DNA of 64,000 nt from Vicinamibacteria bacterium (GTDB lineage Bacteria; Acidobacteriota; Vicinamibacteria; Fen-336). The notes beneath the pieces are model-generated. The model ran no database searches and was not told the origin of the DNA. It was given only the letters and a program-made list of their open reading frames with translations. Location of the stretch: positions 3,550 to 67,549 of the forward strand of contig JBDIBD010000001.1 of NCBI GenBank assembly GCA_039812725.1. The letters run 5' to 3'. The position numbers and the translations under genes are program-made. Shown here piece by piece: positions 2,041 to 35,448 of this stretch. The first letter of the stretch is position 1. The number at the start of each line of letters is the position of its first letter.

Positions 2041-2047
2041 GGTTTCC

Positions 2048-6229: not shown

Positions 6230-6305
6230 TCCCTGGCCTGCCTCCGGGATGCAGTTCCTGACGGATGGTCGTGGGGGTGATTTTACGGGGGCGGAGGCCT
6301 CGGTG

Positions 6306-6875
6306 CTATCGGCCCGCCCGGGCCAGGTCGCGATGCCAGTTGAGGAAGCGGGGCCCCGTGACGACCCTGGCGCGGATGGCCTCGTCGAACAGGCCGGCGA
6401 GCCCGTCCCAGGGCTCGACCGATGCCGGAAGAAGCGTCCACCGGAGCTCGTCCAGAAGCCAGTGCCCCTTGATGTCCTGGCACCGGTAGCAGGCCGTCAC
6501 CAGGTTGGCCGCGTCGCCCGACCCGCCTCTTGACCGTGGCGTGATGTGGTCGGCGGAGGCCGTCAGGTCCCAGACCAGCGGGTGCGTCGAGTCCCTCTTC
6601 CAGTTGGGGTGGATCGGAATCAAGTCGGGGAAACGGGCGCTCAACAAGGGGAGGACCGGCGGGAAGAGAGTCCTCCGGCCGCAGTAGCGGCAGGTGAAGT
6701 TGTCGCGCCGGAAGACCTCGATCTGGAGGCGCCTGGGCGCCGGCCTGGCGGCCGGCAGTTCCTCTGGCCGCCAAGCTACCGGCGTCAAGGCCCGCCGACC
6801 AGCTGCATCGTCGCCTCGCAAGAGGGCCTTCAGCGCGGCCTCGACGCTGCCCAACGACTCGCTCGAGCCGGTCAT
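6306..6875 (-). CDS. HNH endonuclease family protein
   Basis: 189 aa; CRYCGRRT...ADHITPRSRGG...NLVTACYRCQ matches HNH/zinc-finger nuclease layout; 76 bp upstream of pglW on same strand. Confidence 0.7.
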   Translation of the reverse strand: MTGSSESLGSVEAALKALLRGDDAAGRRALTPVAWRPEELPAARPAPRRLQIEVFRRDNFTCRYCGRRTLFPPVLPLLSARFPDLIPIHPNWKRDSTHPLVWDLTASADHITPRSRGGSGDAANLVTACYRCQDIKGHWLLDELRWTLLPASVEPWDGLAGLFDEAIRARVVTGPRFLNWHRDLARAGR

Positions 6876-7090
6876 GTCTGCGGCCCCCCGCGCACGCCAA
6901 ACGGCAGAACCGTCAGTTTCGTCAGTGCAGCCGCGCCCATGCGTGACCTGCCCCTCCCTTCCTCTCCTATGGCCACTTCAGACCCTTCGGTCTCAAACAT
7001 ACAATGCAGCCGGTCCCGCGTAGTCGTGGCCCGGACGGGACGAGCGTCGCGCAGTCACCCTGCGTGGCCAAGCTGGAGGGAGACCCGATC

Positions 7091-9283
7091 ATGGAAACAC
7101 TGGTGCGCACCCCCCAGACCGTCTTCATGCAGCCCCAGCGGCTCATGGTCCCTCTGTTCCAGCGGCCCTACGTCTGGAACGAGGACGATCAGTGGGAGCC
7201 GCTCTGGAACGACGTGGTTCGTGTGGCCAACAGGCTGCTGGCCGGGCCGCACACCCGACTTCAGTCGCACTTTCTTGGTGCCGTGGTGCTGCAGCAGGTT
7301 CAGCGGCAGATCGGCCTGATGCAGGAACGCACCATCATCGACGGGCAGCAGCGGCTGACCACGCTGCAGCTCTTCATGGATGCCCTCCACGCCGAGCTGC
7401 TCGCCGCGGGCCAACAGCCTCCTGCCCTGCGGCTCGAGCCGCTCGTCACCAATGCCCAAGCCTTCTGCGCCAAGCCCGAGGACCGCTTCAAAGTCTGGCC
7501 GACGAACCGGGATCGGCCGGCCTTCAACGCCGTCATGAGCGCCACGCCGCCGGTGGATCACGACGCCCTCGGCCACTCCGGTGCCCGGATGGTCGAGGCG
7601 CATCGGTTCTTCAGCGAGCAAGTCCGTGCTTGGCTCTCCTCCGCCGGTCCTGACGGAGTGGAGGCGCGAGCGCTGGCGATCGAGACCGTCGTGCGCGACC
7701 ACCTCCAGATGGTCGTGATCGACCTGGGCGTCGATGAGAACGCCCAGGAGATCTTCGAGACGCTGAACGCGCGAGGGGCACGCCTCACCGCGGCCGACCT
7801 CATCAAGAATTTCGTCTTCCAGCGGCTCCTCGAGGCCGGCGCGGATGTCGAGCGCGCCTACCAGCGCGACTGGCAGGACTTCGAGACCGGGTTCTGGGAG
7901 ACCGAGATCAGCGTCGGCCGGGTCAAGGAGCCGCGCTCGTCGATCTTCCTCAACCACTGGCTGATCGCCCGTACCGGCGAGGAGATCGTCGCGCGCGAGG
8001 TCTTCACCCGCTTCAAGAGCTTCGCGTCGTTCGATGCCGGCCTCCCCATGGAGGCCCTGCTCCAGCAGGTCCAGCGGGCGGCAACGGTCTATCGTCGCTT
8101 CGTCACGAGCGCTTCCACCCTGACCGGCCCGGTGGACCGCCTCGGGCTCTTCGGCTACCGCACGGGCATCCTGGAGAGCGAGGTCATCAAGCCGCTCGTG
8201 ATGCACCTCCTCGATCCCGAGGAGGCCCCAGTCCCGGAGGAACAGCTCTACGGCGCTCTCGACGCCGTGGAGGCCTGGATGGTGCGACGGATGCTCGTTC
8301 GCGCTACGACCAAGAACTACAACCAGGTCGTCGCCGAGCTCATCAGGGAGCTGCGCGCCTCTGCCCGGACGCAAGCGGGGACCGTGGTGGTGCGGTATCT
8401 GGCGCGCCAGACGAGCGCGAGCCGCTACTGGCCGGACGACGAGGAGGTGCTGGGCGAGCTGAGGACGCTCTTGGCGTATCGGCGCCTCGGACGCGGCCGC
8501 CTCCGCATGGTCCTCGAGGCCGTCGAGGACCACCTGCGTGGCTGGAGGGACGGCGGCGTCGGACTGGGCGGCGAGCGAGTCGCTCGCGGCCAGTACGCCA
8601 TCGAGCACGTCATGCCTCGGAAGTGGGCTGCACACTGGCCAGCCGCCGAGGGGTTCCGGAGCGAGGCCGACCGCGACCAGCTCATCCACACGATCGGAAA
8701 CCTCACACTTCTGACGGGCAAGCTGAACAGCAAGGTCTCGAACGGCCCATGGCTTGGCCCTGACGGGAAACGGCAGGGGCTCGAGGGGCACGATGTCCTC
8801 CTGCTCAACCGCGAGCTTCTGAGAGCCAATCGGGACGCATGGACGGATGCGGCGATCCGTGGGCGGTCGGAGGAACTGGCGAAGCTCATCCTCGCGATCT
8901 GGCCTGCGCCCGCCGGGCATCGTTCCGGTTTCGCGGAGAAGGCCAAGACCCACTCGCGGCACAAGATCCACCTCGCCGACCTCATCAGTGCCGGACTGCT
9001 CGAGGCCGGCATGCCCCTCTATGCACGCCGCAGGCAGTTCGCCGACCGCCTGATCACCCTTCTCCCTGATGGGCGGGTCGACGTCGAAGGCACGGCGTAT
9101 GCCAAGCCGTCCACGGCGGCGACAGCGCTCACTGGTAGGCCGACGAACGGCGTGTGGTTCTTCCTCGTCGATCGCGTCTCCCGCCGCTCCTTGCGGGACG
9201 TGCTCCGCGACTACGTCGACTCACGCGCGGTCGACGCCGAGGATGACGAGGGTGAGGAAGACGGCGACGACGAGGAGGCCTAG
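7091..9283 (+). CDS. GmrSD/BrxU-like type IV restriction endonuclease (N-terminal DUF262 ParB-like NTPase, C-terminal DUF1524 His-Me finger nuclease), acidic C-terminal tail
   Basis: DGQQRLTT motif (DUF262), C-terminal AIEHVMPRKW...IGNLTLLTGKLNSKVSNGPW (DUF1524); ATG at 7091 preceded by GGAGGGAG RBS; track ORF starts earlier at 7004 but lacks RBS. Confidence 0.85.
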   Translation: METLVRTPQTVFMQPQRLMVPLFQRPYVWNEDDQWEPLWNDVVRVANRLLAGPHTRLQSHFLGAVVLQQVQRQIGLMQERTIIDGQQRLTTLQLFMDALHAELLAAGQQPPALRLEPLVTNAQAFCAKPEDRFKVWPTNRDRPAFNAVMSATPPVDHDALGHSGARMVEAHRFFSEQVRAWLSSAGPDGVEARALAIETVVRDHLQMVVIDLGVDENAQEIFETLNARGARLTAADLIKNFVFQRLLEAGADVERAYQRDWQDFETGFWETEISVGRVKEPRSSIFLNHWLIARTGEEIVAREVFTRFKSFASFDAGLPMEALLQQVQRAATVYRRFVTSASTLTGPVDRLGLFGYRTGILESEVIKPLVMHLLDPEEAPVPEEQLYGALDAVEAWMVRRMLVRATTKNYNQVVAELIRELRASARTQAGTVVVRYLARQTSASRYWPDDEEVLGELRTLLAYRRLGRGRLRMVLEAVEDHLRGWRDGGVGLGGERVARGQYAIEHVMPRKWAAHWPAAEGFRSEADRDQLIHTIGNLTLLTGKLNSKVSNGPWLGPDGKRQGLEGHDVLLLNRELLRANRDAWTDAAIRGRSEELAKLILAIWPAPAGHRSGFAEKAKTHSRHKIHLADLISAGLLEAGMPLYARRRQFADRLITLLPDGRVDVEGTAYAKPSTAATALTGRPTNGVWFFLVDRVSRRSLRDVLRDYVDSRAVDAEDDEGEEDGDDEEA

Positions 9284-9370: not shown

Positions 9371-9880
9371 CTACTCGTGGGTTGCGTGTCCGGGTGGCGG
9401 GAGGGGGATGGTGACATCCCGGCCGATTGTCTTCAGGACGTACCGATAGTCACCGTCGTCAGTTTGGTCGTTCCAACTGATCGGCAGGGCGTCGGGATAG
9501 GTGACGTGGAGCATGTGCAGGTACCAACCTGCGTAGGCCCAGTCTTGGCCATAGCCCAACTGGGCAATCCTCGGGAAGCGCTCGAGGATGACGTCGGCGA
9601 GCTCACTCGGATGAGCGTGAGAGACGTCCTGCCAACCCCAGAATGTCGACCCGGATGCGCTGCTGTACCGCGCGATGGCATCGTCCGGCACGTCCCTCGC
9701 CCACCGCGCCCCGTGCTCCTTGCTGATGTGGCAAGCGGGCAGGATGCTGCAACGCCAAGTTCCGAGGTTGTAGAGAGAGGGCACGATGCGGACACGCTGA
9801 AAGCCCCGCACATGGAGCTCTCCCACGGCCCGGAGGAGCTTCCGGCAACGCCTGATTCCATTCTGTGCGGCCGTAGGCAC
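9371..9880 (-). CDS. hypothetical protein
   Basis: GTG start at 9880 with AGGAGG RBS 4 nt upstream; high GC3; no recognised domain. Confidence 0.45.
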   Translation of the reverse strand: MPTAAQNGIRRCRKLLRAVGELHVRGFQRVRIVPSLYNLGTWRCSILPACHISKEHGARWARDVPDDAIARYSSASGSTFWGWQDVSHAHPSELADVILERFPRIAQLGYGQDWAYAGWYLHMLHVTYPDALPISWNDQTDDGDYRYVLKTIGRDVTIPLPPPGHATHE

Positions 9881-9985
9881 CCCCCTCCTTGCGCGCGAAT
9901 CCGGTCGGCTAGCGACCGAGCCTGAGCGCGTGCAGGCCACTCAGGAGCGCCGTGGGGCGCCTGCGCCGAGACGCCGCTCGCCGCC

Positions 9986-11134
9986 TCACCCCCGAATGAT
10001 CCGCGCCATGCACTCCGCCAGCTTCTCCGGCGTGCACACCAGGATGTCCATCCCGACCTTCCGAAGCCGCTTGGCAGTCGTCCGGTTGTAGGCCGGCCGG
10101 GCGTCGTACCCCAGCGCCCCGAGCCCGATCATCCGCACTCCCGCTTGGGCCAAATCCTCGGTCTGCCGCACCAAGTCGTCCTCGCTCCCCCCCTCGTAGA
10201 AGTCCGTAATGAGAACGATGATGGTACGGGACGGCTGCCGCACGAGTTGGGCGCCGTACCGGAGCGCCTGGGCGATGTCCGTCCCACCGCCGAGCTGGAC
10301 CTTCATCAGCACGTCCACCGGCTGACCCACCTGGTCCGACAGGTCCACCACTTGGGTGTCGAAGAGGAACAGCGACGTCCGGACCGCCGGCAGCTCGTAG
10401 AAGATCGAGGCCATCACGGCGGAGAACACAGCCGAGTCGAGCATCGAGCCGGACTGGTCGACGGCGATGATCACGTGCCAGGGCCGCCGGCGCCGCTCAG
10501 CCGCGAAGTAGTACACCCGCTCCACCAGCAGGCGCTCGCTCTCCCGGTTGTAGTGCTTGAGGTTCCGACGCAGGGTGGTCTTCAGGTCCAGGTTCCGGTA
10601 CACCTTGCGGGGCGAATGCCGATCGCGCCGCAGTGCCCCCGTGATGGCCGACTCCACAGCCACCTGCATACGCCGCTTTAGCTCCTCCACCACCCGCTCG
10701 ATGATCTTGCGGGCCAGCACACGTGTGTTCTCGTTGAGCAGTTCCTTGTGCGTGAGAAGGGTCTTGACCAACTCGACGTTCGGCTCGACCTTCTCGAGTA
10801 GCTCTGGCTGGTCGAGCAACGCCCGGATCCCCCGCCGCTTGACGAGCTCGCGCTGGAGGACCTCCTGGGCCGAGTGCGGGAACAGTTCGGCGACCTCGTC
10901 GATCCAGGTCGGGACGCTCAGCATCGACTCACCGCGGCCGCCCTTCCGGTCCCCTGACCCCTGAGAGCCCTGCTCGCCGCTCCCTTCGAAGAGAAACCCG
11001 ACGAGCGCCTCGATGCGCTGCAGCCGCGAGTCGTTCCCGACTGTCAGGCCCTCGGCCTCGGCCTCCCGGCCGAGGACCAGCCGCCACCGAGCGACGGTGC
11101 GCGGGTCCGCCGGAACGCCGCTCACAGGTCCCAC
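9986..11134 (-). CDS. VWA domain-containing protein (MoxR-associated, CoxE-like)
   Basis: 382 aa; N-terminal RWRLVLG motif, VWA MIDAS-like IIAVDQSGSM ... GGGTDI; start overlaps upstream DUF5682 gene by 13 nt. Confidence 0.8.
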   Translation of the reverse strand: MGPVSGVPADPRTVARWRLVLGREAEAEGLTVGNDSRLQRIEALVGFLFEGSGEQGSQGSGDRKGGRGESMLSVPTWIDEVAELFPHSAQEVLQRELVKRRGIRALLDQPELLEKVEPNVELVKTLLTHKELLNENTRVLARKIIERVVEELKRRMQVAVESAITGALRRDRHSPRKVYRNLDLKTTLRRNLKHYNRESERLLVERVYYFAAERRRRPWHVIIAVDQSGSMLDSAVFSAVMASIFYELPAVRTSLFLFDTQVVDLSDQVGQPVDVLMKVQLGGGTDIAQALRYGAQLVRQPSRTIIVLITDFYEGGSEDDLVRQTEDLAQAGVRMIGLGALGYDARPAYNRTTAKRLRKVGMDILVCTPEKLAECMARIIRG

Positions 11135-13566
11135 CCCGCCAGGATCCGGCCCACCTGCTCGTCGATGTGCGCCATCAGAGCCCCGGCGGCCACGGAGGTC
11201 CCGAGGCGGATTAGCTCGTCGCTGGTCTTTAGCCCGTGACGGCGGGCCACGCGGTCGGCCAGGGTCAGCCGCTGCCGTTCGTGCAGGCGCTCGAAGGCCC
11301 CGCGCAGCCGCGGCAGCATGACGAGGAAGGAGTCGTGCTCAGCCACCCGCAGCAACTCGTCGACAGCCTCCACGAGGTGTTCCGCCCCGAGGAGCAGCGA
11401 GGTGCGGGAGGTGGCCAACGCTCCGTCGAGGAACTCCCCTGCGACGGTCATCCGGTCGGCTGGCTCCTGGGCGAAGGCGGCCAGGTGCCCGGCCAGGGTT
11501 TCGGCCGAAATCACCCGCAGCTCGGCCAGCAGGCCTAGAAAGGCTCCCCTCAGGAAGGGCACCGTGCTCGCGCCTGCCGCGCTCTCGACGTGCTGGATGA
11601 GCACGTCGCGGTCGAGCCGCTCCTGCTCCCCCAACAGCGCCTCCGCCACCACCCGAAGGGCCTCGATCACGGCTTCCTGTTCGTCCGCGGGGACGTTGGC
11701 GGCTTCCGGAAGCGCGAAGCAGGCGCGGTCAAAGCACTGCTCAACCAGCTCGTCGAGCGCCCCCTCGCGGAACTGCCGATAGGAGAGGTGCCGCCTCAGG
11801 AGCAGCAAGTGGTGGAGGGCCTCGGCCAACGAGACGAAGCGGCCGTCGACGCCGATGGCGGCACGGCAGGCCCGCTCCAGCTCGTCGGCCAGGGTTGGCA
11901 GCTCCATGTCGAGCGCCGCCCGCAGGCGCCCCGCGATGGCCCCCGCCTTGCCCGCGTGCTGGGCCAGTTCCTCCCGCAGCCGGGCCAACGCCGCAGCCTC
12001 CACTGTGTCGCCCAGCAGGGCGCGCTCGGTCAGCTCCGTCTCGACGTCGGGGCTCCAGAGCAGCCGCCACACTTCGCGGAAGATTGTGCCAGAGTCGAGG
12101 TTCCCTCCCCCGCCCTCCAGGAGTTGGACGAGGGGCACGCCCAGGACCCGCAGGCGGTGCAGGAAGGCGGAGCGGCGCCGCCCCAACTCCTCGCGCTTGT
12201 CGAGCCTCAGGGTCAGGCGCTTCTCTTGATCGACCACCTGGCCCAACTCCAGCGCGTCGAGCTCCCCATAGAAGTCCGAGAGGAGCGGAAGCCGGCCGAG
12301 GGCCGGCGTGACCGCGCCGATGCGCGAGCCGATGTCGACGGCGTCGATGGCGGTGCGCAGCCCGCGTCCATGCCGTTCCGGGCTGCCCTTGCAGCAGCAG
12401 GTCAGGATCGCGTCGTGAACGTCGTCGAGCACGGGGTGCGGCCGGCGACGCAGGGACGCCAGCAGCCTCGCATGCTGGGCGATGCTGATGGCGTCCGCCG
12501 AGGAGACCGTCTCGCCCTCCTTCCGCGCCCGCTTGAGCACCGCCACGACGTGCCGCGCGAGCAGCTCGTCGCGGTCTCCGGCCAAGCCGGCCTCAAACAG
12601 CGACTGATAGAACCGCGGGGCGCGGTTCCCGGCCCCGTATCCAGAAAGCTCCGAGACCCGGAAGTAGGAATACGGCACCACGGAGGTGCGGACCGTCCCC
12701 GGCGGGGCGATGGGCGGCGGGCTCGGGTCCGCGCGGTCGAGGAGAAGGTGGAAGCCCCCGCAAACTACCAGGGCCTCGCCCGGGGTGAGCTCGTGCCGCT
12801 CCAGCGCTGCTTGGATGGCGCGCCACATGAACCGCTCGCGCTCGAGGGTCCCGTCGGCGAGCAGGCGCTCCGGCACGGTCGTGGCGCGCGCCGCCGCGCA
12901 GAAGGTCAGCAGGTCGCGACGGAAGGCCTCGCGGTCTGTGGCGTGCGGACCGAACTCGAACAGGCAGTCCCAGGCCTCGTCCCAGTTCCGGTACCCGCCC
13001 GCCCGCGCCAGGGCCTGATAGAAGCCACTATCCAAGAAGACCGCATCCGGCCGGGAGTCCGGCGGAGTTTGGCTTCCGGGGCCCGGGCCGTCGTCCTTCG
13101 GCCGTGGGCGGATCAGGGCCCAGTGCGGCAGGTCGATGAACTCGACCTGGGCCCCGATCGCGGCGGCCGTCTTCATGGCCACGTACTCGGGCGAGTAGGC
13201 CAGCAGCGGGTACCAGGCCGGGAACCGTGCCGGGATGGACTCGCTGGGGCTGGCGATGCCGGCCAGTCCGAGGACGTTCTGGTCGTCCCGGTAAGACGAG
13301 TAGAGCGCCACCGGTGGGCGCGTGCGCTTGTCCACGACGTGAGGAACGAGGTCGGTGGCCTCAGAAGGCCCCTCGATCAGGACCAGGCGCGGCCGCCGCT
13401 CGCGAATGGCGGCCTCGACGTGCCAGGCCACCGCCGGGGAGTGGTGGCGCACAGGGAACCAGTAGATCTCGTCGGCCAGCACCCGCGCGACGACATCCTG
13501 CACGGCCTCCAGATCGAGGCCGGGAACCGGAGGCAGCTCGGGAAGGCCGGCCACGGCCTGTGTCAT
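11122..13566 (-). CDS. DUF5682 family protein
   Basis: 814 aa; typical DUF5682 N-terminus (IYWFPVRHHSPA); positioned between MoxR ATPase and VWA gene as in conserved actinobacterial clusters. Confidence 0.75.
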   Translation of the reverse strand: MTQAVAGLPELPPVPGLDLEAVQDVVARVLADEIYWFPVRHHSPAVAWHVEAAIRERRPRLVLIEGPSEATDLVPHVVDKRTRPPVALYSSYRDDQNVLGLAGIASPSESIPARFPAWYPLLAYSPEYVAMKTAAAIGAQVEFIDLPHWALIRPRPKDDGPGPGSQTPPDSRPDAVFLDSGFYQALARAGGYRNWDEAWDCLFEFGPHATDREAFRRDLLTFCAAARATTVPERLLADGTLERERFMWRAIQAALERHELTPGEALVVCGGFHLLLDRADPSPPPIAPPGTVRTSVVPYSYFRVSELSGYGAGNRAPRFYQSLFEAGLAGDRDELLARHVVAVLKRARKEGETVSSADAISIAQHARLLASLRRRPHPVLDDVHDAILTCCCKGSPERHGRGLRTAIDAVDIGSRIGAVTPALGRLPLLSDFYGELDALELGQVVDQEKRLTLRLDKREELGRRRSAFLHRLRVLGVPLVQLLEGGGGNLDSGTIFREVWRLLWSPDVETELTERALLGDTVEAAALARLREELAQHAGKAGAIAGRLRAALDMELPTLADELERACRAAIGVDGRFVSLAEALHHLLLLRRHLSYRQFREGALDELVEQCFDRACFALPEAANVPADEQEAVIEALRVVAEALLGEQERLDRDVLIQHVESAAGASTVPFLRGAFLGLLAELRVISAETLAGHLAAFAQEPADRMTVAGEFLDGALATSRTSLLLGAEHLVEAVDELLRVAEHDSFLVMLPRLRGAFERLHERQRLTLADRVARRHGLKTSDELIRLGTSVAAGALMAHIDEQVGRILAGWDL

Positions 13567-13576
13567 CCCCGGGCGC

Positions 13577-14746
13577 TCACTTGCTGGGCAGCACTTCCTG
13601 GAGTCCGTCGAAGAAGGCGCTCCAGTCGGCGTCCTTGGCGGCCCGCTTCTTGGCCACCAACGTCGCGTACTCCTTCAGGGCCGCCAGGTCGCCCACGTCT
13701 TCCTTGACGACCGAGCCCACGATGTTCCGCGCGATGTCGCCCCCGCCAACCTTGTGCTTGCCGAAGAACGAGGCTCTCAAGGCCGACTCGACCGCCACGC
13801 CGATGGCCTCCGCAGTCGACAGCGTGGTGGAGGGTTGCTTGAGGCTGGTGCCGTCCGCGCTCCGACCTTCCCGAATCTCCCGGAAGGCGGTGGCAATCAG
13901 CTGGGCCATCTTGGGCGGCACCTCGAGCGGCACCCGATAACGCGACAGGAGCTCGGCCGATCGCTGCCGGACGATCTCGACCTCGGTCTTGGCGTCCTCG
14001 ACCACGGGTATGTGGATGTAGTTGAAGCGGCGCTTCAGTGCGGCCGAGAGCTCGTTCACCCCTTGGTCGCGGGTGTTGGCCGTGGCGATCAGGTTGAAGC
14101 CCGGGCGGGCCCAGACCATGTTGGCCTCGGGCAACTCGGGCACGGCGATGGCCTTGTCGGAGAGGATCGAGACCAGCGCGTCCTGGACGTCGGGGACGCA
14201 GCGGGTGATCTCCTCGAAGCGCAGCAGGCTGCCCGTGCGCATCGCGACCATGGTCGGAGCCGGGATCAGATTCTGGGGCGTCGGGCCCTCGGCGATCACC
14301 CGGGCGATGTTCCAGGAGTACTTGATCTGCTCCTCCGTGGTACCTGCCGTGCCCTGGATCGTGAGGGTCGAGGTGCCGCTGATGGCGGCCGCCAGGTGCT
14401 CCGAGAGCCAGCTCTTGCCGGTGCCAGGATCGCCCAGCAGCAGCAGGGCCCGTTCGGAGGCCAGCGTCACGATGGCGCGCTCGACGATGGACCGGTCGCC
14501 GTAGAACTTGGTGGTGATCGCCACCGACCTCTTGGCACCGTCGATCTTGGCCTCCACCGTAGCGCCGCCCAGGATGTACGCCAGAACCGCGCGTGGGGAC
14601 AGGCGCCAGCTCTCCGGGCGGTCGTCCTTGTCGGTGGCAGCCAGGGCCTCGAGCTCCTCCCGGTAGCGAACCTCGGCAGGGTCTCGCAGCCGCTCCCCGG
14701 TCGAGGGGCTCTCCGCTGCAGGCTGCGACTTCTCCTTCGAGGCCAT
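13577..14746 (-). CDS. MoxR-like AAA+ ATPase
   Basis: 389 aa; Walker A GDPGTGKS, Walker B-like, AAA_5/MoxR layout; strong RBS GAAGGAG before ATG at 14746. Confidence 0.9.
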   Translation of the reverse strand: MASKEKSQPAAESPSTGERLRDPAEVRYREELEALAATDKDDRPESWRLSPRAVLAYILGGATVEAKIDGAKRSVAITTKFYGDRSIVERAIVTLASERALLLLGDPGTGKSWLSEHLAAAISGTSTLTIQGTAGTTEEQIKYSWNIARVIAEGPTPQNLIPAPTMVAMRTGSLLRFEEITRCVPDVQDALVSILSDKAIAVPELPEANMVWARPGFNLIATANTRDQGVNELSAALKRRFNYIHIPVVEDAKTEVEIVRQRSAELLSRYRVPLEVPPKMAQLIATAFREIREGRSADGTSLKQPSTTLSTAEAIGVAVESALRASFFGKHKVGGGDIARNIVGSVVKEDVGDLAALKEYATLVAKKRAAKDADWSAFFDGLQEVLPSK

Positions 14747-14756
14747 GAGGACTCCT

Positions 14757-15866
14757 TCAGGTGAACTTGAGCGCCTTCACGAGTGCGGCGGCGTCGAACG
14801 TCTCCTTGCTGAGCAGGAGCGCCTCCGGCCCCCGGGCCGTGAAGAGAGTCAGGGGCTGCAACATGAACCGGCACATCTCGTAGTGCACGATGCCGAAAAG
14901 GCGGGCGTCCTGGGGCTGCTTCCACGAGTCCAATGCGCCTCGCAACAGGGCGTCGTCGGGCCCCTGCCCGGCCAGCACGTGGCAGGTGAGCGTACCCGCG
15001 ACCAGGGGGACCCGCTGTAGCTGCTCGCGGGGGACATCCTCCGGCTCCCCAGTGCGGAAACCGGTCAGGACGACTTCCTCCTGGAGCTCCACCTCGAGGT
15101 CGAAGGGGCCCGGCGTGCAGCCCGTGATTCGGTCGAGGGCCCCGCGAGCGTCCCAGGTCAGGAACCTGTCCCAGTCCTCGAAGGGCTCGGCCCGCGAGGC
15201 GACCTTCGACTCTCGGGTCAGGCTGAGGCGTCCCTCGTCCGAGACGACCGCGGCGGTCACGCGGTTGACCTGGCCCGGGAGAAAGGCGGCAGCCTTGAAG
15301 CCCTGAGGCTGCGGAAGGTGCAGGAACGCGTCCGGGGGCACATCGGAGCCGCCCCGCAGGGGGAACACGATCGACCACGACAACGGCGCGCCGGCGGCCA
15401 AGCCGTCGACCGCCTCGAGCGCCCGCAGGCGAAAGTCGAAGGCCGCGAAGGCCCCCCGCACGACGCGCTTGCCGACGCCGAGCGTCACCACCTCGAGATT
15501 CGGGAGGGGGCGGCTACCACCGAGCCCCGCCAGCAGGCGCCAGCGGGGCTCGTCCTCGGCCTCGAGCGCCTTGCGCAGGCCGCGACTGAGCATCCAGGCC
15601 CTGTTCAGGAAGAAGCCGTACCGCCGGCGGGAGAACCCCGTGTCGTTCTTGGCGAAGCGCCCCAGCTCCTCAGTGGCAACCCGCAGAGTGAAGCCCAGCC
15701 TCAGGAGCCGCATGCGCGATGCCGCCTCGAACGAGACCGCGAGGGTGCGGCGCGTGGCCTCAGACGCGGCCGCGAGGCCGGTCAGGAGGAGATCCTCGAC
15801 GGCTTGCTCGAGGTCTCGGAGCAGCCGCTGGAGGCCCTCACGCTCGGCAGCCGGAGGCAGGCTCAT
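14757..15866 (-). CDS. hypothetical protein (operon member, no recognised domain)
   Basis: 369 aa; start overlaps (ATGA) the upstream small ORF; stop 10 nt before MoxR gene; GC3-biased codons. Confidence 0.6.
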   Translation of the reverse strand: MSLPPAAEREGLQRLLRDLEQAVEDLLLTGLAAASEATRRTLAVSFEAASRMRLLRLGFTLRVATEELGRFAKNDTGFSRRRYGFFLNRAWMLSRGLRKALEAEDEPRWRLLAGLGGSRPLPNLEVVTLGVGKRVVRGAFAAFDFRLRALEAVDGLAAGAPLSWSIVFPLRGGSDVPPDAFLHLPQPQGFKAAAFLPGQVNRVTAAVVSDEGRLSLTRESKVASRAEPFEDWDRFLTWDARGALDRITGCTPGPFDLEVELQEEVVLTGFRTGEPEDVPREQLQRVPLVAGTLTCHVLAGQGPDDALLRGALDSWKQPQDARLFGIVHYEMCRFMLQPLTLFTARGPEALLLSKETFDAAALVKALKFT

Positions 15867-16213
15867 GCCGGTTCGCCTTCCGAATCCCCATCAGGTCCTT
15901 CGATGGCTCCGGCGAGCGTCCGCAGTTGGCCTGCCGCCACTTCCAGGGTCAGGACGCGTTCGAAGACGCGCAGGCTGGCCTGCGTCCGAGCCAGGGCCGC
16001 CGCCGCCTCCCGGCGGTCGCCCGACACGGCCTCCACGAGGGCCCCGAGCCGGCTGGCGAGGTGCGAGGCGCCGACCTGCGCCAGATCCTCCTGCACGGCC
16101 CTCAAGACGGGGAGGCGCTCGGGGCCCGAGACCCGAAGCCCGCCAACTGCCAAGTCCTCGAGCTCCGCCTGCAGCCGGCCGAGCGCATAGGTGATCTCGG
16201 CCAGCTCGGTCAC
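15863..16213 (-). CDS. small hypothetical protein (116 aa), operon member
   Basis: Start overlaps (ATGA) the stop of the BRCT-SWIM gene; helical, Ala/Leu-rich. Confidence 0.45.
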   Translation of the reverse strand: MTELAEITYALGRLQAELEDLAVGGLRVSGPERLPVLRAVQEDLAQVGASHLASRLGALVEAVSGDRREAAAALARTQASLRVFERVLTLEVAAGQLRTLAGAIEGPDGDSEGEPA

Positions 16214-17259
16214 AGGGCGTAGTAGTCCTCAGGAACCGTCTCGGTCGGGCGCCAGTCGATCTCGCCGGCCTGGGCGCTCTTGAGGCGAAGAACGAGCTCG
16301 GCGCTCGCCTGGGGCTCCTCGACCGGCGATTCCCGCGAGGCAACCTGGGCCCAGCCATGCGCCACGCGAGCGTCGAGGAGCCCCTTGCTCGCCAGCCCGA
16401 CCAGGAGCACCACAAGGTGCTTGCAGATGTCGCCCCGCATCCCCATGCACAGGCGCATGTTCCCGTCGAAGCAGCTGAAGCTCCCGTCGTCCTGCATCCA
16501 GCAAGCGTAGTACGCCTCGGGTTCGGTCTGGCTTCTGACGATCCCACCAACCGAGGAGGCGGTCGTCAGATGGTAGAGCTGCAGAGCGCCCTCTTTGAGC
16601 ATGCGGATGGCACGCTCGACCTTCTTCGGGTCGGTCAGCGTCCGCAGGTGGACTGCGAGACCGCGAGCGTCGTACCCCGATTCCCCGGGACGCCGGAGGC
16701 ATGCCATAAGGTCCAGGAACTCGTCCTCGTCTAGGACCCTCAGGGACGGGCGAGCGACCTGGAGCTCCTTCAAGCGGGCCAACTCCGCCTGCTTGCCCCT
16801 GCCCCGTCCACTGCCCACCACGGCGAAGTCGACCGCGTCGGTGGCCTCAGTGATGACCTGCCCCCCGGCGGCTACGACCATGGCCGAGGGGCTCTCAAGA
16901 TCAAGGCCGCGCGACAACCCGCCTACGAAGAGGAATGCCTTGCCGGCGATCTTGGGTCGCAGGAGAAAGAGGAAGCTCGTCGGGTCGAGCGTCTGCGGAC
17001 CTCGCCCCTCGGCTCGGAGCCGCTCGGCCTTGCGCAACGCCTCGGCCTTCCCCTTGCCAGGCTTGTTCCCTACGACCAGGAAGTCCGCATCCTCGAGCCG
17101 TGACACGAGTCGGGCGTTACGCCGCCTGAGATGCGGCTCGGGCCCTCCCTCAGGGAGGACGCTTGGCCAGTCGTCGAACCCCCACTTCCCCACCAGGAAG
17201 AACCGCTTGCCCCTGAGGTCCTCGGCGTACTCCAGCACCGGCGCACTCGACCTAGCCAT
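16210..17259 (-). CDS. SWIM zinc finger protein with BRCT-like N-terminal repeats
   Basis: 349 aa; SWIM motif CWMQDDGSFSCFDGNMRLCMGMRGDICKHLVVLL (CxC...CxH); two BRCT-like units (FFLVGKWGF..., FLFVGGLSRGL...); C-terminal AQAGEIDWRPTETVPEDYYAL shared with neighbouring paralog. Confidence 0.75.
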   Translation of the reverse strand: MARSSAPVLEYAEDLRGKRFFLVGKWGFDDWPSVLPEGGPEPHLRRRNARLVSRLEDADFLVVGNKPGKGKAEALRKAERLRAEGRGPQTLDPTSFLFLLRPKIAGKAFLFVGGLSRGLDLESPSAMVVAAGGQVITEATDAVDFAVVGSGRGRGKQAELARLKELQVARPSLRVLDEDEFLDLMACLRRPGESGYDARGLAVHLRTLTDPKKVERAIRMLKEGALQLYHLTTASSVGGIVRSQTEPEAYYACWMQDDGSFSCFDGNMRLCMGMRGDICKHLVVLLVGLASKGLLDARVAHGWAQVASRESPVEEPQASAELVLRLKSAQAGEIDWRPTETVPEDYYAL

Positions 17260-17262
17260 GGT

Positions 17263-18681
17263 TCAGTAGGCGTAGAAGTCCTCAGGGATCGTCTCGGTCG
17301 GCCGCCAGTCGATCTCGCCGGCCTGGGCTCCCTTGTACTTCAGCAGCACCACGCCAAGAGTGTCCTTGTCGAGGACCGGCCGGTGTAGGGTGCTGCGTTG
17401 CACCCAGTCGTCGAGCGTGTCGGGGTGGATCTCGTGGGCCTGGGCCAGCCCGACGACGAGGACCAGCAGGTGCTTGCACAGCGACCCGCGCAGCCCCCCG
17501 CAGATGTTGAGGTTCTGGGTGCAGCAGGAAAAGGCGCCGTGGGCGCTGAGGGTGCAGGAGTAGACCAGGTCTGGATCGCTCTGGCTCTTGACCACGCCCG
17601 TCAGCCGCGCATCTTCGACCTCCACGAAGAGCTGAAAACGCTCGCCCTTGAGCATGTTCAGCGCCTTCCGGAGCCTGGGCTTCTCGATAGAGGCCTCCAG
17701 CCGCTTCATGAACGCGGCCAGGTCCACCGGGCCCTCGGTCTTCTTGCGCTCGGTGATCGCGGCCAACGCAACCGGGCTCGGCCCCTGGCCCATCCAACGG
17801 AGCCCCTCGGGGAACGGCCCCCCCTCGGGCCAGGTGGTGGCCGCGTCGTACTGAGCGCCAACCCACTGCGCCCCGTGGAGGCGGGCCCCTGTGAACACGG
17901 CGCCCTGGAGGCGCGCGTGGCTCAGGTCCGCTCCCGTCAGGTCGGCACCCCCGAAGTGCGCCTGTTTGAGGACGGCGCCCTTGAGGAGTGCCCGGCCCAG
18001 CCTCGCGCTGGTGAAGGTGGCCTTCGAGAAGTCGCGACCGCTGAGGTCGGCCTCCGCCAGCACCGCGGCGTCGAAAGATGCTCCGGGCATGTCGACGAGC
18101 CGAGCCCCTGTCAGGTCGCACCCAATCAGCTTGACGCGCTTCAGGGGCGCGAGTGCCGAGGCCTCCTTCACGCGCGCGTTCCACTGCTCCACGCCAGGCG
18201 CTCCGGCGGCCAGCAAGGCGAGAAGCTGCTTCTGCCGGCTCTTCGCGCCGGCCCGTTCCTCCTGCTCGGCCGCCCGCTTGGCCTGGCGACGTGCTGTCAC
18301 CTCTTCCGCCGCCGGTGGCGCCTCGCCGAAAGCCTCGTACCACGCCGCCAGGCACAAGTCGGTCAACTCTTGTCCGCCGACCGGGCACTTGCTCCCGCTG
18401 CCCTTGACGGAGTCGGCCACAAGGCTGCCCTGCCCGGCCAGACGGGACGCCAAGGCAACCATCGCCTCGGAGGCCGTTCGCGTTCGGCGCCAGTCCTGGG
18501 GTCGCCCGGCAATCACGCTCTTGCCCAGCGCCGAGGTGCCCTGGGCGTCGCTGCTCTGCCGGACCTCGAGGTCGAAGACCCCGCCGCCTGTCCGAACGAA
18601 TTGGGCGCGCGCAACGATCGTCTTCGCCAGGCGAGCAACTCGCTCCAACTCCACGAGACTGGGCCCAAGGGTGGCTGTCAT
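17263..18681 (-). CDS. pentapeptide-repeat protein with C-terminal SWIM zinc finger
   Basis: Pentapeptide repeats (ADLSGRDFSKATFTSARLGRALLKGAVLKQAHFGGADLTGADLSHARLQGAVFTGARL); SWIM CTLSAHGAFSCCTQNLNICGGLRGSLCKHLLVLV; internal ATG at 18681 (MTATLGPSLVEL) preferred over track start 18936, which lies in a low-complexity leader. Confidence 0.75.
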   Translation of the reverse strand: MTATLGPSLVELERVARLAKTIVARAQFVRTGGGVFDLEVRQSSDAQGTSALGKSVIAGRPQDWRRTRTASEAMVALASRLAGQGSLVADSVKGSGSKCPVGGQELTDLCLAAWYEAFGEAPPAAEEVTARRQAKRAAEQEERAGAKSRQKQLLALLAAGAPGVEQWNARVKEASALAPLKRVKLIGCDLTGARLVDMPGASFDAAVLAEADLSGRDFSKATFTSARLGRALLKGAVLKQAHFGGADLTGADLSHARLQGAVFTGARLHGAQWVGAQYDAATTWPEGGPFPEGLRWMGQGPSPVALAAITERKKTEGPVDLAAFMKRLEASIEKPRLRKALNMLKGERFQLFVEVEDARLTGVVKSQSDPDLVYSCTLSAHGAFSCCTQNLNICGGLRGSLCKHLLVLVVGLAQAHEIHPDTLDDWVQRSTLHRPVLDKDTLGVVLLKYKGAQAGEIDWRPTETIPEDFYAY

Positions 18682-19046
18682 CGCGGAACGGATTGTGCCA
18701 TGGGCCGAAGCCTCCAGCCCCGGGCCCTCGGCGAGTCGGCTCGGCTGAGGCCTCGGACGCGATGCCAGGCATGACCCTGAAGTCGCAGGCAAGGGCACCG
18801 ACCGCTCCGCAGGGATGACTCGGCAACAGCTTGAGCTGGCCGACGTCGTGCCAGCGTTCCAGCAAGAAAAAACCACCTGATTTTTCTTCGAGGTGCTGCG
18901 CCGCCCCACCCGCTCAACCCCAAGGCCATCGCTCAAGTTCCATCAAGTCAATCCGTTGGGCGCCGTGGCGGGTACTGGCACGCCCCATGCATTCTCTTCT
19001 GGCCAATGGTGAACAGCCAGCGACGAAGACCGACAAGGAGAAAGAG

Positions 19047-19964
19047 ATGACAGAACCTCAGATGAGCAGGGCGACGCCGCGAGACGTCCTCGAACGAGCG
19101 TGTGCAGTGATCGCGAAGCCGACCCGCGCCAACCGGGTGGCGACGGCCGCGTGGCTCGCTGCGTGGCTGATCCGGCGGTCTGTGCCATCAATGATCCTCG
19201 CGCCCCCGTCTGACTGCCCGACCCTCAACACCCTCGTCCGGCGGTTACTTGGACCCCACGGTACCGAGCGACCGCCGGCGGCACCCCTGTTGGTCATGAA
19301 TGCAGACTGGCACGGCGCCAGCACGGTTGAGGTGTATCTGCACGACCCCCTCTATGTTCTCGCGCCCGTCCCGTCGTTGGGCCTGAAGGCTGGGGACTTT
19401 GTGCACGTTCGGGACATTGATTACGCGGCACAGGGCGCCAAGGTGACTGTGGCGACGTCGGGCGGCGAGGTGACCTGCGTCCTACCCTCCGACGCACGCG
19501 ATGCGCTCCCACTGGCGGTCGGATACGCAGTGCCGGCGAGTCTGCCGGTGCGAGGTCAGCATGGGGTGCTCATCATGGTCGACGACGGCGCCTACCCTCT
19601 GGTCCTGAGCGCTCCCGCGCGCGCGCACGAGTGGATGGACTCGGCGGCGGGCACTGTCGTGGTCAGCGACTCGTACTCCAGACTCGAGCGGGGCGCCTAC
19701 GAGACGCTGACCACGGGCTCCTATCGCCCGTGGGAGCACAGCCTATTCGGATGGAAGCCGTACCCCGAGGACGAGATCGACTGGGCACTCGAGCAAGCAG
19801 CGAACCTGGCCTTCTGCAGGCGGCGAGGTGGTGACGGTCCAGACGACATCCCAGTCGAACAAGCAAGGCAACTGCTCAGTCAGGCATCGGGCTCGCCTCC
19901 TGGGATGGCTGCCCTCTGCTCATGGCTCAGTTCCGTTAGTCCATTTCGCACCTTCGGACGCTAG
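19047..19964 (+). CDS. hypothetical protein
   Basis: ATG at 19047 with AAGGAG RBS 8 nt upstream; 305 aa; no recognised domain; lies in GC-poorer junction after the SWIM operon. Confidence 0.55.
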   Translation: MTEPQMSRATPRDVLERACAVIAKPTRANRVATAAWLAAWLIRRSVPSMILAPPSDCPTLNTLVRRLLGPHGTERPPAAPLLVMNADWHGASTVEVYLHDPLYVLAPVPSLGLKAGDFVHVRDIDYAAQGAKVTVATSGGEVTCVLPSDARDALPLAVGYAVPASLPVRGQHGVLIMVDDGAYPLVLSAPARAHEWMDSAAGTVVVSDSYSRLERGAYETLTTGSYRPWEHSLFGWKPYPEDEIDWALEQAANLAFCRRRGGDGPDDIPVEQARQLLSQASGSPPGMAALCSWLSSVSPFRTFGR

Positions 19965-19984
19965 TCCTGATTAGGAGGAGAATC

Positions 19985-20185
19985 ATGAAACTGAAGACGC
20001 TGTTGAATATCCGGACCGTCAGCGCGATGACCGCGCGATCGCGGAGCTCGATCTACCGCGACGTGCGCGCGGGCAAATTCCCGCCGCCGCTGCAGATCGG
20101 CCCCCACAGCGTGGCGTTCCGGCTCGACGACATCGAGTCATGGATCGCGAGCCGGCCCGTCGCCGGCGGGGGAGGCCGCTCGTGA
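19985..20185 (+). CDS. AlpA family phage regulatory protein / excisionase-like HTH
   Basis: 66 aa; LLNIRTVSAMTARSRSSIYRDVRAGKFPPP matches AlpA/MerR-like HTH; RBS AGGAGGAG 5 nt before ATG. Confidence 0.75.
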   Translation: MKLKTLLNIRTVSAMTARSRSSIYRDVRAGKFPPPLQIGPHSVAFRLDDIESWIASRPVAGGGGRS

Positions 20186-20445
20186 GAGCCGCACGCGGAT
20201 GGGTCTCACCGCTCCAGCGCGTGGAGAACATCACCCTCAACCTGCGGCTGCCCGCGAGCCTCGTCGCCGAGCTGGACGCGTACGCCGAGTACGTGGGGGG
20301 CGAGTCGGATCGGCGCTACGTCGCCCACCAGATCGTCGCGTCCTACCTCGCGAGGGACAAGGAGTTCCGCAACTGGCTGGAGTCCCGGCCGACCCGCGAA
20401 ACCCCGCCGGCGGGGCCCGCGCCGGTCGTGCCGCCCCGCCCCTAG
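20182..20445 (+). CDS. hypothetical protein (possible RHH-like small protein)
   Basis: GTG overlapping the AlpA stop (GTGA), GGGGGAGG upstream; 87 aa. Confidence 0.4.
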   Translation: MRAARGWVSPLQRVENITLNLRLPASLVAELDAYAEYVGGESDRRYVAHQIVASYLARDKEFRNWLESRPTRETPPAGPAPVVPPRP

Positions 20446-20666
20446 CCGCACAGGACCGAGGGCCTGCTCGAGCGCAGGCCCTCGGCTCCCCCCGGGTCCA
20501 GGGCAGAGCCCTGGCACTGCGGCGCCCCCGGGGGCGCCCACCTGCGAAGCCCGGCGCCAGCCGCACTTCACGGGGGACACACGCCGACTCGCAGCACCCA
20601 GCCGGCTCGCGACCGCAACCACCCACCCCGCGGAATCAGCCCTCGCGCTCTCCCCAGCTTTCCGTC

Positions 20667-23504: not shown

Positions 23505-23533
23505 TTCCTTTGTCACCGGAGTATGATCCACCC

Positions 23534-24034
23534 GTGGCCCGACCCCGAAAGCTCCCCGCCGCCACCTCCTCCGCCCACCGTGACGCCGCCTACGCCCTCG
23601 GACGCCGTGTCCTCGAGCGCCAGGGTTTCCAGCACTTGGGCCAGATCGCTCTCGAGGCCGCACGCTCTGACGCCGACATCGCCCGCGTCCTGCTCACCCA
23701 CGTCCACAACTGGACCCACCTGAACGCCCTCAAGAACGCCAACGCCCGCGCCGCCCTCGAGCCCTTCGTCGGAGCGCTGGAAGATGCGGCCGAGATCAAG
23801 CCGCCGGGCCAGGACGGCCCGGAGGTGGAGCGGCTGTTCCGAGCGCTGTCCACCGCGGCTCACTACATGGGGCTCGAGCAGGCTGCGGCCCTGGCGGGAA
23901 TCCCAGGCCGCAGCGGCGAGCGCGTCCTCGAGCTGGCTCGTGCCTACTCGCACCTGTTCGTCGTGAACGAGCGAGACAAGACCGTCGGCGCTCGGGACCG
24001 GTTCCGACTCTTCGGCACGCCGGGGCGGGGCTGA
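23534..24034 (+). CDS. hypothetical protein
   Basis: Strong GC3 bias; GTG at 23534 with GGAG 12 nt upstream (track TTG start at 23510 would abut the relaxase start); start uncertain. Confidence 0.4.
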   Translation: MARPRKLPAATSSAHRDAAYALGRRVLERQGFQHLGQIALEAARSDADIARVLLTHVHNWTHLNALKNANARAALEPFVGALEDAAEIKPPGQDGPEVERLFRALSTAAHYMGLEQAAALAGIPGRSGERVLELARAYSHLFVVNERDKTVGARDRFRLFGTPGRG

Positions 24035-31409: not shown

Positions 31410-32006
31410 TCAGCGCGCCGGGCCGCCGTCGCGCCCTGGCGCACCCAGCCACCGGCGGTCCCACGTCCGCAGGCGCAGAGCGGCCTCGGCCACGCGGTCG
31501 GGGAACAGCCGCTCCACCAGCACCAGGAAGTTCGCCTTCAGGGTGCGCAGGTCCGTCACGGCCGAGGTCATCTCCTCCTCGAACCGCGGCAGCAGGACGT
31601 CGAGGTCCAGCGGCGGCTGCATCCTCTCGATCGCCTCGAGGTCGTGCTCGTACCCGCGGATGACCTTCATCAGCGCCAGGTCGTGCCTCTCGGGCACCAG
31701 CACCACCAGGCGCCGCAGGCCAGGCAGCGCGCGCTGCAGCCGGTCCTCGAGCTCGTACGGCCCGTCCGCGACCCCGCTCTTGCCGAACGGGACGTCCAGG
31801 CCACAGGCCTTCCTCGCACGCTCCACCGCCGCCTCGAGCTGCGGCGGCACCACCGACCAGGTGTCGATGTCCGTCGTGGCCACGGCCACACCGTACTGGA
31901 TCGCCGCCGCGGCGCCGCCGATCACCACCACCTCGACGCGCTCCTCGAGCACCTCGTCCACGGACGCCAGGAACCGGCTCAGCTCCGGGCCCGAGAACGT
32001 CCTCAC
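31410..32006 (-). CDS. putative nucleotidyltransferase-fold protein (DUF6036/MNT-like), second gene of a 2-gene module
   Basis: 198 aa; VVVIGGAAAAIQYGVAVATTDIDTW resembles the pol-beta NTase GS...D.D motif; start overlaps (ATGA) the upstream wHTH gene. Confidence 0.5.
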   Translation of the reverse strand: MRTFSGPELSRFLASVDEVLEERVEVVVIGGAAAAIQYGVAVATTDIDTWSVVPPQLEAAVERARKACGLDVPFGKSGVADGPYELEDRLQRALPGLRRLVVLVPERHDLALMKVIRGYEHDLEAIERMQPPLDLDVLLPRFEEEMTSAVTDLRTLKANFLVLVERLFPDRVAEAALRLRTWDRRWLGAPGRDGGPAR

Positions 32007-32773: not shown

Positions 32774-32861
32774 GGGATCAGAGTATCACCAGGTGTGATA
32801 ACTCTGCGCGCTTTCGGGACCGCTGGCCAACGGCCAGGGTGGCCGCGAGGCCCGGGGAGAG

Positions 32862-33635: not shown

Positions 33636-33747
33636 GGACGCCACCTCCGGAGAGGAACTCCCAGCAATTCTACGGTGGGCGGGCTCCCGGGACGTCGCTT
33701 ATGCTGGCACTCTCCAGCCCGCAGTGAGGCTTGCTCACGGAGGTGTC

Positions 33748-34941: not shown

Positions 34942-34984
34942 CGGGTGGCCGGCGCCGGGACACAATGGCCTGCGAGGAGGCGCC

Positions 34985-35152
34985 ATGGGCTTTGCCAGCA
35001 TGAATGAGGACGCTCAGGACTCCTACGATGAGGCGATGGCCGACCGCGAGTCCGAAGCCGACGACTCCGGGTCCACTTCCGACAACGACTCGGGCTCCAA
35101 CGACGATTCGGGCGCGAACTCCAACAACGGCGACGACAGCAGCGACAAGTAG
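34985..35152 (+). CDS. small hyper-acidic Ser/Asp-rich protein (55 aa)
   Basis: MGFASMNEDAQDSYDEAMADRESEADDSGSTSDNDSGSNDDSGANSNNGDDSSDK; GAGGAGG RBS upstream of ATG. Confidence 0.4.
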   Translation: MGFASMNEDAQDSYDEAMADRESEADDSGSTSDNDSGSNDDSGANSNNGDDSSDK

Positions 35153-35182
35153 TGGCGCGGCGTCGGGTGGGCGGGGTGTGCA

Positions 35183-35395: not shown

Positions 35396-35448
35396 AGGCC
35401 CCGGCCGACGTCGGTCGGGGCCTGTGCGATCATGGGCGCTGGGACAGC

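Follow-up and report, generated by a model that had tools for sequence, protein, structure and literature searches.

A seven-gene MoxR-DUF5682-VWA operon of a Vicinamibacteria bacterium, related to Escherichia coli yehLMP and carrying predicted nucleic-acid-binding accessory proteins

YehL is one of the seven subfamilies of MoxR AAA+ ATPases (PMC3893208), and in E. coli it belongs to the yehLMP cassette, which occurs in 5353 of 5426 complete E. coli genomes (98.7%). The cassette is present there as a single chromosomal copy, and because of this near-universal occurrence it is a core rather than an accessory gene set of E. coli. The wider family has a five-gene layout (DUF4132, MoxR, DUF5682, VWA and SWIM), which is found in E. 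coli (yehI..yehQ) and on plasmids of Bacillus mycoides and Agrobacterium vitis, and further plasmid records, among them those of Streptomyces, Rhizobium and Deinococcus, gave tblastn matches. In E. coli K-12 (2196474-2210944, locus L001), yehF (WGR, PF05406), the pseudogene yehH, yehI (DUF4132, 1210 aa) and yehK are located upstream of yehLMPQ. The present study concerns a related operon at positions 9986-18681 (minus strand) of the window, that is, the whole stretch of 64,000 nt (GC 70%) analysed from contig JBDIBD010000001.1 of a Vicinamibacteria bacterium. Its seven genes are numbered G1-G7 along the window, and G3-G2-G1 are homologous to yehL-yehM-yehP of K-12 and arranged in the same order. 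The initial annotation of this DNA stated that no function had been assigned to the gene set; this holds for the literature, but the gene set itself is not an unknown one, its core being that of E. coli yehL-yehM-yehP. The cassette is most aptly classed as a sister clade of a known, uncharacterised YehL-type family and does not represent a novel gene set in itself. As for its role, we tentatively suggest, with rather less than even confidence, that the operon encodes a self-contained machine of the YehL-YehM-YehP family, which would use ATP to remodel nucleoprotein complexes or proteins bound to DNA. Its purpose would be the maintenance or surveillance of the genome, not dedicated anti-phage defence.

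The extent of the operon is well defined. The G+C content at the third codon position is 0.83-0.90 across the seven open reading frames, which is the third-position bias of real genes in a window of 70% GC. In the order of transcription, G7 and G6 are separated by 3 nt, G6 and G5 share a GTGA overlap and G5 and G4 an ATGA overlap; these are followed by a 10-nt gap holding AGGAG between G4 and G3, a 10-nt gap between G3 and G2, and a 13-nt overlap between G2 and G1. Since the junctions consist of overlaps or tiny gaps, and since promoter-like and terminator-like sites inside the operon occur at no more than chance level, the natural reading is that G7 to G1 form one translationally coupled operon. 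The seven coupled minus-strand genes of the initial annotation are thus borne out by base composition and junctions, as are its VWA, DUF5682, MoxR and pentapeptide labels by Pfam hidden Markov model searches. Two flanking open reading frames, 9371-9940 on the minus strand and 18831-19964 on the plus strand, were considered as members and rejected; neither is conserved with the cassette elsewhere, and the seven genes are therefore the right extent. No att-like direct repeats were found around the cassette.

The three core proteins carry the kinship with the E. coli genes. G3 (13577-14746, minus strand) is a MoxR AAA+ ATPase of the YehL subfamily, which matches AAA_5 in Pfam with an E-value of 5.2e-34 and shares 44% identity with YehL over 370 aa (E 1e-92). 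Its Walker A motif is located at 14411-14434 (minus strand); six of the seven positions from G105 to K111 are invariant (G110 is not listed), and so are F177-E178-E179 and R239-R240. The FEE variant of Walker B is common to G3 and YehL, and Walker A, FEE and the arginine residues are invariant across both clades. G1 (9986-11134, minus strand, 382 aa) is a VWA protein of the CoxE type, with an E-value of 8.6e-51 to VWA_CoxE (PF05762), a weak match to cobaltochelatase and 41% identity to YehP (E 3e-97). The DxSxS motif of its metal-ion-dependent adhesion site (MIDAS), at 10445-10459 on the minus strand, is intact, and D226, S228, G229, S230, T285 and D311 do not vary among 25 sequences, those of E. 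coli, Bacillus and Agrobacterium included. Both MoxR and VWA proteins, in other words, keep their catalytic and metal-binding residues.

G2 (11122-13566, minus strand, 814 aa), whose gene always lies between those of MoxR and VWA, matches DUF5682 (PF18934) with an E-value of 2.4e-122 and is 30% identical to YehM (E 8e-44). In the structural model, the N-terminal part (12667-13512, minus strand) is an alpha/beta domain resembling TraB, TIKI, EreA and ChaN, with fold matches to TraB, EreA and ChaN (including 2g5g), and it is followed by a lid-like and alpha-solenoid helical region. At the sequence level, no match of this domain to the TraB/PrgY/TIKI/EreA/ChaN superfamily was found. The motifs RHHS, EGP and GGFH are invariant in DUF5682, and the His/Glu/His motifs are invariant in both the window clade and the E. 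coli type. The model suggests that the N-terminal domain is a metal-dependent hydrolase or a peptide-binding site on a large helical scaffold; it differs from the described members of the superfamily in being embedded in an 814-aa helical scaffold, and its activity is putative. Sequence-profile searches of the PDB with DUF5682, with G4 and with the C-terminal module of G6 and G7 gave no significant match.

Beyond the core, each of the two clades has a Cys/His zinc-finger accessory protein, and then they diverge. None of the seven window proteins matches DUF4132, a canonical SWIM protein is lacking, G4 and G5 are specific to the window clade, and the one to five proteins bearing the C-terminal module, which end in an invariant tail and may carry a pentapeptide or BRCT head, are encoded upstream rather than downstream of the core. 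Another group to be compared is that of the MoxR-vWA ternary conflict systems (Kaur et al. 2020, PMC7159879), which likewise combine MoxR and a CoxE-like vWA protein with constant and variable partners, are enriched in organisationally complex bacteria and include pentapeptide repeats among their associated domains. The differences are that the window MoxR scores 20.5 bits against bpMoxR, under the cut-off of 27, with only P-loop-level nSTAND matches; that no VMAP, iSTAND or beta-propeller part was found in the window cassette; and that the 382-aa window VWA protein is without an extra domain or C-terminal effector. That paper mentions neither Yeh nor SWIM.

G4 and G5 are the parts by which the window clade is distinguished. 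G4 (14757-15866, minus strand, 369 aa) is without a Pfam family, and no Pfam domain was found in 120 of its homologues. Its model consists of an N-terminal helix bundle (15528-15851) and two OB-fold-like beta domains (15183-15515 and 14820-15083), all on the minus strand. In Foldseek, both beta domains are matched with a probability of 1.00 and E-values of 6.5e-6 to 6e-4 by HIN-200 proteins (AIM2, IFI16, p202), LEF-3, SSB, RPA and telomere end-binding protein, at only 9-12% identity and TM scores of 0.43-0.47. The model places a helix between strands 3 and 4, and its succession of strands and helices is consistent with an OB fold; the invariant residues include the basic and aromatic K133, F143, F145, R146, R148 and W164. 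Compared with these structural relatives, G4 has an extra N-terminal helix bundle, and its DNA binding is predicted. G5 (15863-16213, minus strand, 116 aa) is a helical protein without a family and the partner of G4: in 12 loci labelled Myxococcota or Deltaproteobacteria (L023, L029, L030, L031, L035, L037, L039, L045, L057, L067, L070 and L075; about 7.3-8.8 kb in most), G5 runs into G4 as a single open frame without a stop. This fusion recurs as forms of 490-560 aa in a G4 profile search of 1.84 billion proteins, which gave 217 clusters overall, all of the window's clade; among the 150 best matches listed there were no distant relatives. The model suggests that G4 and its partner G5 make up a nucleic-acid-binding subunit.

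G6 (16210-17259, minus strand, 349 aa) and G7 (17263-18681, minus strand, 472 aa, as in its orthologues) are tandem paralogues, in agreement with the initial annotation. They share a C-terminal module of 160 aa (38% identity, E 9e-37), located at 16213-16692 in G6 and 17266-17745 in G7 (both minus strand), and end in a common tail, AQAGEIDWRPTET(I/V)PED(F/Y)YA, which in G7 reads GEIDWRPTETIPEDFYAY. In 53 sequences of the module, C74, C82, C90, K91, H92, D146, W147, R148, P149, T152, P154, E155 and D156 are invariant. The cysteines and histidine form the motif C-x7-C-x7-C-x-H, not CxCxnCxH, with a hydrophobic helix after it. The module matches no Pfam family, and the SWIM profile (PF04434), which matches E. 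coli YehQ at 1.2e-7, does not match it even at E<=10; 'SWIM-like' is the strongest label that the sequence of these modules allows. At the DNA level, the 3' ends of G6 and G7 form a 67-nt direct repeat (16216-16282 and 17269-17335), whose 91% identity stands against only 38% for the two modules as proteins; the tail may be under extreme constraint, or gene conversion may have taken place.

The two proteins differ in their heads. Behind its conserved N-terminal region, G7 has a pentapeptide-repeat beta-helix (17812-18174, minus strand, about aa 170-290), and the Pfam and NCBIfam pentapeptide matches span about aa 173-287, the best being Pentapeptide (PF00805) at 3.8e-19, with 68 bits against a cut-off of 20. 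The repeats resemble those of Qnr and MfpA, with weak matches to MfpA (1.8e-5) and Qnr (4.5e-5 and weaker) that are all far under the family cut-offs; in G7, unlike in these proteins, the repeats stand between an unrelated N-terminal region and the Zn module. The BRCT-like head of G6 (about aa 15-186) scores 0.096 against BRCT (PF00533), with 13.4 bits against a cut-off of 21.3, and 0.0057 against the BRCT region of LigA. Among 85 module proteins at related loci, 48 have a pentapeptide head and 13 a BRCT head (matched down to 1.9e-7), the rest being without a recognisable head, and headless module proteins of about 170 aa are common. Of the labels pentapeptide-SWIM and BRCT-SWIM given initially, the pentapeptide part therefore stands, whereas SWIM and BRCT are borne out only in part: the modules have a SWIM-like motif that the Pfam profile does not match, and BRCT is subthreshold in G6 and matched in 13 homologues. 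Profile-profile alignment (hhalign) of G4, G5 and the module with YehQ-like and DUF4132 alignments revealed no significant link (E 0.06-0.6): the module against YehQ-like SWIM gave 0.057-0.067, and G4 and the module against DUF4132 gave 0.41-0.58. The idea that G4 and the module represent a split YehQ was considered and is unproven, the hhalign scores not being significant.

A scan of 185,579 species genomes yielded 79 loci of the window clade, a rare one, of which 48 belong to Planctomycetota, 17 to Myxococcota or "Deltaproteobacteria", 7 to Melainabacteria-type lineages, 3 to Acidobacteria, 3 to Proteobacteria and 1 to an unassigned taxon; none of the 79 is actinobacterial. The exact DUF5682 protein of the window is a singleton cluster, its nearest relatives (68% identity) come from metagenome-assembled genomes of Vicinamibacteria (Acidobacteria), and the next ones (45-60%) from Planctomycetota, Myxococcota and Obscuribacterales/Melainabacteria. 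The gene order, established with tblastn and a self-trained gene caller, is conserved as [module protein x1-5]-[G5]-[G4]-[MoxR]-[DUF5682]-[VWA]; of the 52 loci that are adequately covered to the left and right, all contain VWA, 51 contain MoxR, 51 G4, 48 G5 and 47 module proteins. There are also local variations. An extra BRCT-headed module gene follows the VWA gene in the Myxococcota-type loci L029, L030, L031, L035 and L067, and also in L058, where G4 is unfused. Five tandem module genes, for proteins of about 170-850 aa, are found in L032 (427-6979) and L077 (1013-6911) of Gemmata/Frigoriglobus, a local expansion of the adaptor family. In L017 and L040 (Planctomycetota), DUF5682 and VWA are present, and MoxR, G4, G5 and module genes were not detected in the fetched sequence, which reaches 10 kb upstream of DUF5682 in L017 and 5.8 kb in L040; these may be rearranged or degraded cassettes. 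In the closest metagenomic relative (L083, 1-7001; G4 73% identical), seven small open reading frames and the gene of a 1040-aa protein, with no Pfam matches, precede the cassette, and this neighbourhood is unlike that of the Acidobacteria relative described below.

The genes around about 40 related loci were examined in two sets, the two nearest genes on each side (33 loci, 132 proteins) and genes 3-7 out (32 loci, 141 proteins), which were called with the self-trained gene caller and amount to 273 proteins. The nearest genes fall into 176 Pfam families, the largest with 3 members, and the outer genes into 195, the largest with 6 members (Ser/Thr kinases); none is recurrent. Against PADLOC-DB v2 (dated 2023; flank matches counted at E<=1e-10), the nearest genes match 19 families with 1-2 proteins each, namely generic kinase (PD-T4-6), cyclase (PycC), ClpB-like AAA and trypsin-like models, and the outer genes match 55 families, of which the 25 listed are kinase-domain models with 4-6 proteins each. 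Ser/Thr kinases are abundant in the phyla to which the relatives of the cassette belong. Among the flank families listed, that is, the 25 commonest in each set, there is no restriction-modification, BREX, CRISPR, Abi, integrase or transposase family. As a positive control, the window's own neighbours score 1e-37 to 0 in the same PADLOC library. The neighbourhood comparison had been set beforehand as the refuting test of a defence link, and it showed no enrichment of defence or mobile genes among the families listed for the 273 flanking proteins; the PADLOC check for a known defence system likewise gave no model match to any of the seven cassette proteins, with P-loop-level matches on MoxR (E>=1e-4) and none on the other six.

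Individual relatives agree with this. The closest complete one, on a 163-kb Acidobacteria contig, keeps all seven genes, and its neighbours encode formate-THF ligase (FTHFS), GDPD, an M48 peptidase, sulphur-transport proteins, dihydroorotate dehydrogenase and PFOR. In L027 and L054, both of the Gemmata lineage, the lengths and strands of the flanking genes match. In addition, 50,697 phage records yielded a single weak match to the cassette, and the 2.9 million viral contigs searched lack it. Since the flank families listed for the relatives include no defence genes and the cassette is essentially absent from phages, the defence-island argument is limited to the copy in the window, and a single copy inside a defence island was no evidence for the family.

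The surroundings of the window copy itself are those described initially, between a BREX/Pgl plus GmrSD locus and a relaxase/AlpA remnant, and this context is stronger than had been stated. Within 1-9283 lie a type-2 BREX/Pgl fragment, made up of PglX (PADLOC 4e-276), which is cut off by the window start, and PglW (1608 bits), with NERD, two kinase domains and an RNA polymerase alpha-CTD-like domain; and, after PglW, a GmrSD-type (type IV) enzyme with a C-terminal RAMA domain. The best plasmid matches of PglW are proteobacterial (44-46%), not those of Streptomyces (34%). On the other side, an AlpA-like excisionase/regulator and an adjoining 998-aa TrwC/MobF relaxase-helicase occupy 19940-23663; the plasmid relaxases of PLSDB reach no more than about 31% identity to this protein, there was no sign of an integrase near these two genes, and the window contains no tRNA gene. 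The segment 25295-31343 encodes two large and unusual proteins, an S9 prolyl-oligopeptidase that carries PD40 repeats as well as a secretin/TonB STN domain, and a 986-aa protein in which 16 Sel1 repeats are fused to a trypsin-like protease. It is followed at 31410-48651 by a dense run of toxin-antitoxin and defence genes, which comprises a DUF6036 nucleotidyltransferase, Schlafen/AlbA_2, fused MNT-HepT (PDC-S09), SoFic (DUF4172-Fic), PDC-S01 (AAA_14/DUF4143), AbiEi and a metallophosphoesterase. Further on, a 2150-aa Rhs/Tc-type toxin (54914-61366) has SpvB, TcdB mid/N, FG-GAP and RHS repeats, and the GC content of the window is lowest (0.63) at 54-56 kb, where the 3' end of the toxin gene lies, which is what one would expect if the toxin tip had been swapped.

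In the nucleoprotein-remodelling machine suggested at the outset, G4 and G5 would bind nucleic acid, and the paralogous module proteins would serve as adaptors or clients, by analogy with Rea1/Midasin, CbbQO and the chelatases. The pentapeptide beta-helix, as a DNA mimic, and the BRCT heads might pick out DNA-binding targets; the invariant acidic tail (..IPEDFYA) or the Zn module might dock on the VWA MIDAS or on DUF5682; and ATP hydrolysis by MoxR might drive loading, extraction or activation. In Rea1/Midasin, CbbQO and integrins, it is an acidic client residue to which the MIDAS domain binds, and for this reason the tail is a candidate MIDAS ligand or DUF5682 substrate. The points in favour of such a machine are the orthology and collinearity with yehLMP, the conserved cassette, the G5-G4 fusion, the invariant Walker and MIDAS residues, the tandem-OB matches of G4 with its invariant basic and aromatic residues, the TraB/EreA/ChaN fold matches of DUF5682 with its RHHS, EGP and GGFH motifs, the conservation of the module with its pentapeptide or BRCT heads and the WGR protein YehF near the E. 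coli cassette, together with a context in the relatives that is neither defence-linked nor mobile, the core status in E. coli and the absence from phages. The initial annotation had preferred anti-phage or genome surveillance to a housekeeping role; of this, the surveillance half gains support from the predicted tandem-OB G4 and the BRCT and pentapeptide heads, and the anti-phage half is not supported beyond this window.

Several points weigh on the other side. The docking role proposed for the tail is drawn purely by analogy, and pentapeptide proteins are not invariably DNA mimics. The modules fail to match Pfam SWIM, and their alignment with YehQ-like SWIM stays at E 0.057-0.067. The window copy sits among strong defence genes, and the patchy spread of the family across phyla fits horizontally moving conflict cassettes. 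The core status in E. coli may not carry over to the window clade, with which identity is only 30-44%. Moreover, yehL and yehM are de-repressed in hns/stpA mutants, i.e., they are silenced by H-NS in E. coli (PMC3686432), and the literature search found no functional study of DUF5682, of yehL/M/P/Q or of a YehL-type MoxR cassette.

Part of this evidence would suit defence against phages or mobile elements, in which G4 would sense invading DNA, the pentapeptide mimic and BRCT proteins would be decoys or sensors, MoxR-VWA would set the activation threshold and the TraB/TIKI-like domain of DUF5682 would be the effector. The place of the window copy between PglX/PglW, GmrSD and the relaxase, with SoFic, AbiEi, PDC-S01 and the HepT toxin-antitoxin pair nearby, speaks for it, and predicted conflict systems repeatedly make use of MoxR-vWA pairs (PMC7159879; PMC12839542). 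The patchy occurrence with unconserved neighbours, the module gene copy number of 1 to 5, the concentration of the clade in Planctomycetota, Myxococcota and Cyanobacteria-related lineages and the H-NS silencing of yehL and yehM point the same way. We nevertheless regard it as doubtful, though deserving attention: PADLOC models match none of the seven proteins, the flanking proteins gave generic kinase, cyclase, AAA and protease matches only, among those listed, metabolic genes surround the cassette in its closest complete relative, and the flanks are alike between the two Gemmata-lineage loci. The cassette is also absent from phage records (one weak match aside) and viral contigs, its E. coli homologue is core, a classical toxic effector domain is missing, and the heads are not hypervariable, being only pentapeptide, BRCT or none.

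The housekeeping-type neighbourhoods of the relatives would also suit a chaperone for maturation or cofactor insertion, of the CoxD-CoxE, NorQ-NorD, CbbQ-CbbO, CobS-CobT-CobN or BchI-BchD-BchH type, with DUF5682 as the large substrate-binding subunit and the other proteins as clients unrelated to DNA. The VWA protein is of the CoxE type with a weak cobaltochelatase match, the set of AAA+, VWA and large third subunit parallels the chelatases, and ChaN, the TraB-fold relative matched through 2g5g, binds haem. This role is nonetheless quite unlikely. In contrast to CoxD-CoxE and the chelatases, the window cassette has no linked client enzyme, none of the 176 and 195 flanking Pfam families recurring, its third subunit has a predicted TraB-like fold, not that of CobN or BchH, and its OB-fold, BRCT, pentapeptide and Zn-finger accessories, like WGR in E. 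coli, indicate nucleic acids and not metallo-enzymes. Less probable still is NTPase-assisted protection of topoisomerases, in which the pentapeptide proteins would act on gyrase or topoisomerase like Qnr and MfpA, and MoxR-VWA-DUF5682 would load or recycle them, as the MfpB GTPase reportedly does with MfpA. This would make sense of the weak MfpA and Qnr matches of G7, of the pentapeptide as the commonest head (48/85) and of the predicted nucleic-acid-binding partner G4, but the Qnr and MfpA scores are all far under the family cut-offs, many cassettes have headless modules only, no topoisomerase gene is linked, and BRCT and the TraB-like domain are left unexplained.

What is new in this locus lies in the clade-specific parts (G4, G5 and the tail-bearing module), in the two fold assignments made from models, and in the negative neighbourhood result. 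A more speculative version of the machine, which we consider improbable, is a DNA sensor gated by a decoy: at rest, the tandem-OB surface of G4/G5 would be filled by the pentapeptide DNA mimic of G7; foreign, damaged or aberrant DNA would displace the mimic; the VWA MIDAS would capture the freed tail; and ATP hydrolysis by MoxR would activate the TraB/TIKI-like hydrolase of DUF5682. If true, this would be a bacterial analogue of DNA sensing of the AIM2/p202 type joined to a Midasin-like motor, and the first function for the whole YehLMPQ superfamily, E. coli core genes included. The accessory proteins of the window clade, with predicted tandem OB folds, BRCT, pentapeptide repeats and a Zn module that bears the tail, can be interpreted more readily than YehQ and YehI, and the two structural leads, namely the TraB/TIKI-like site of DUF5682 and the predicted OB-fold DNA binder, make a long-standing E. 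coli orphan testable.

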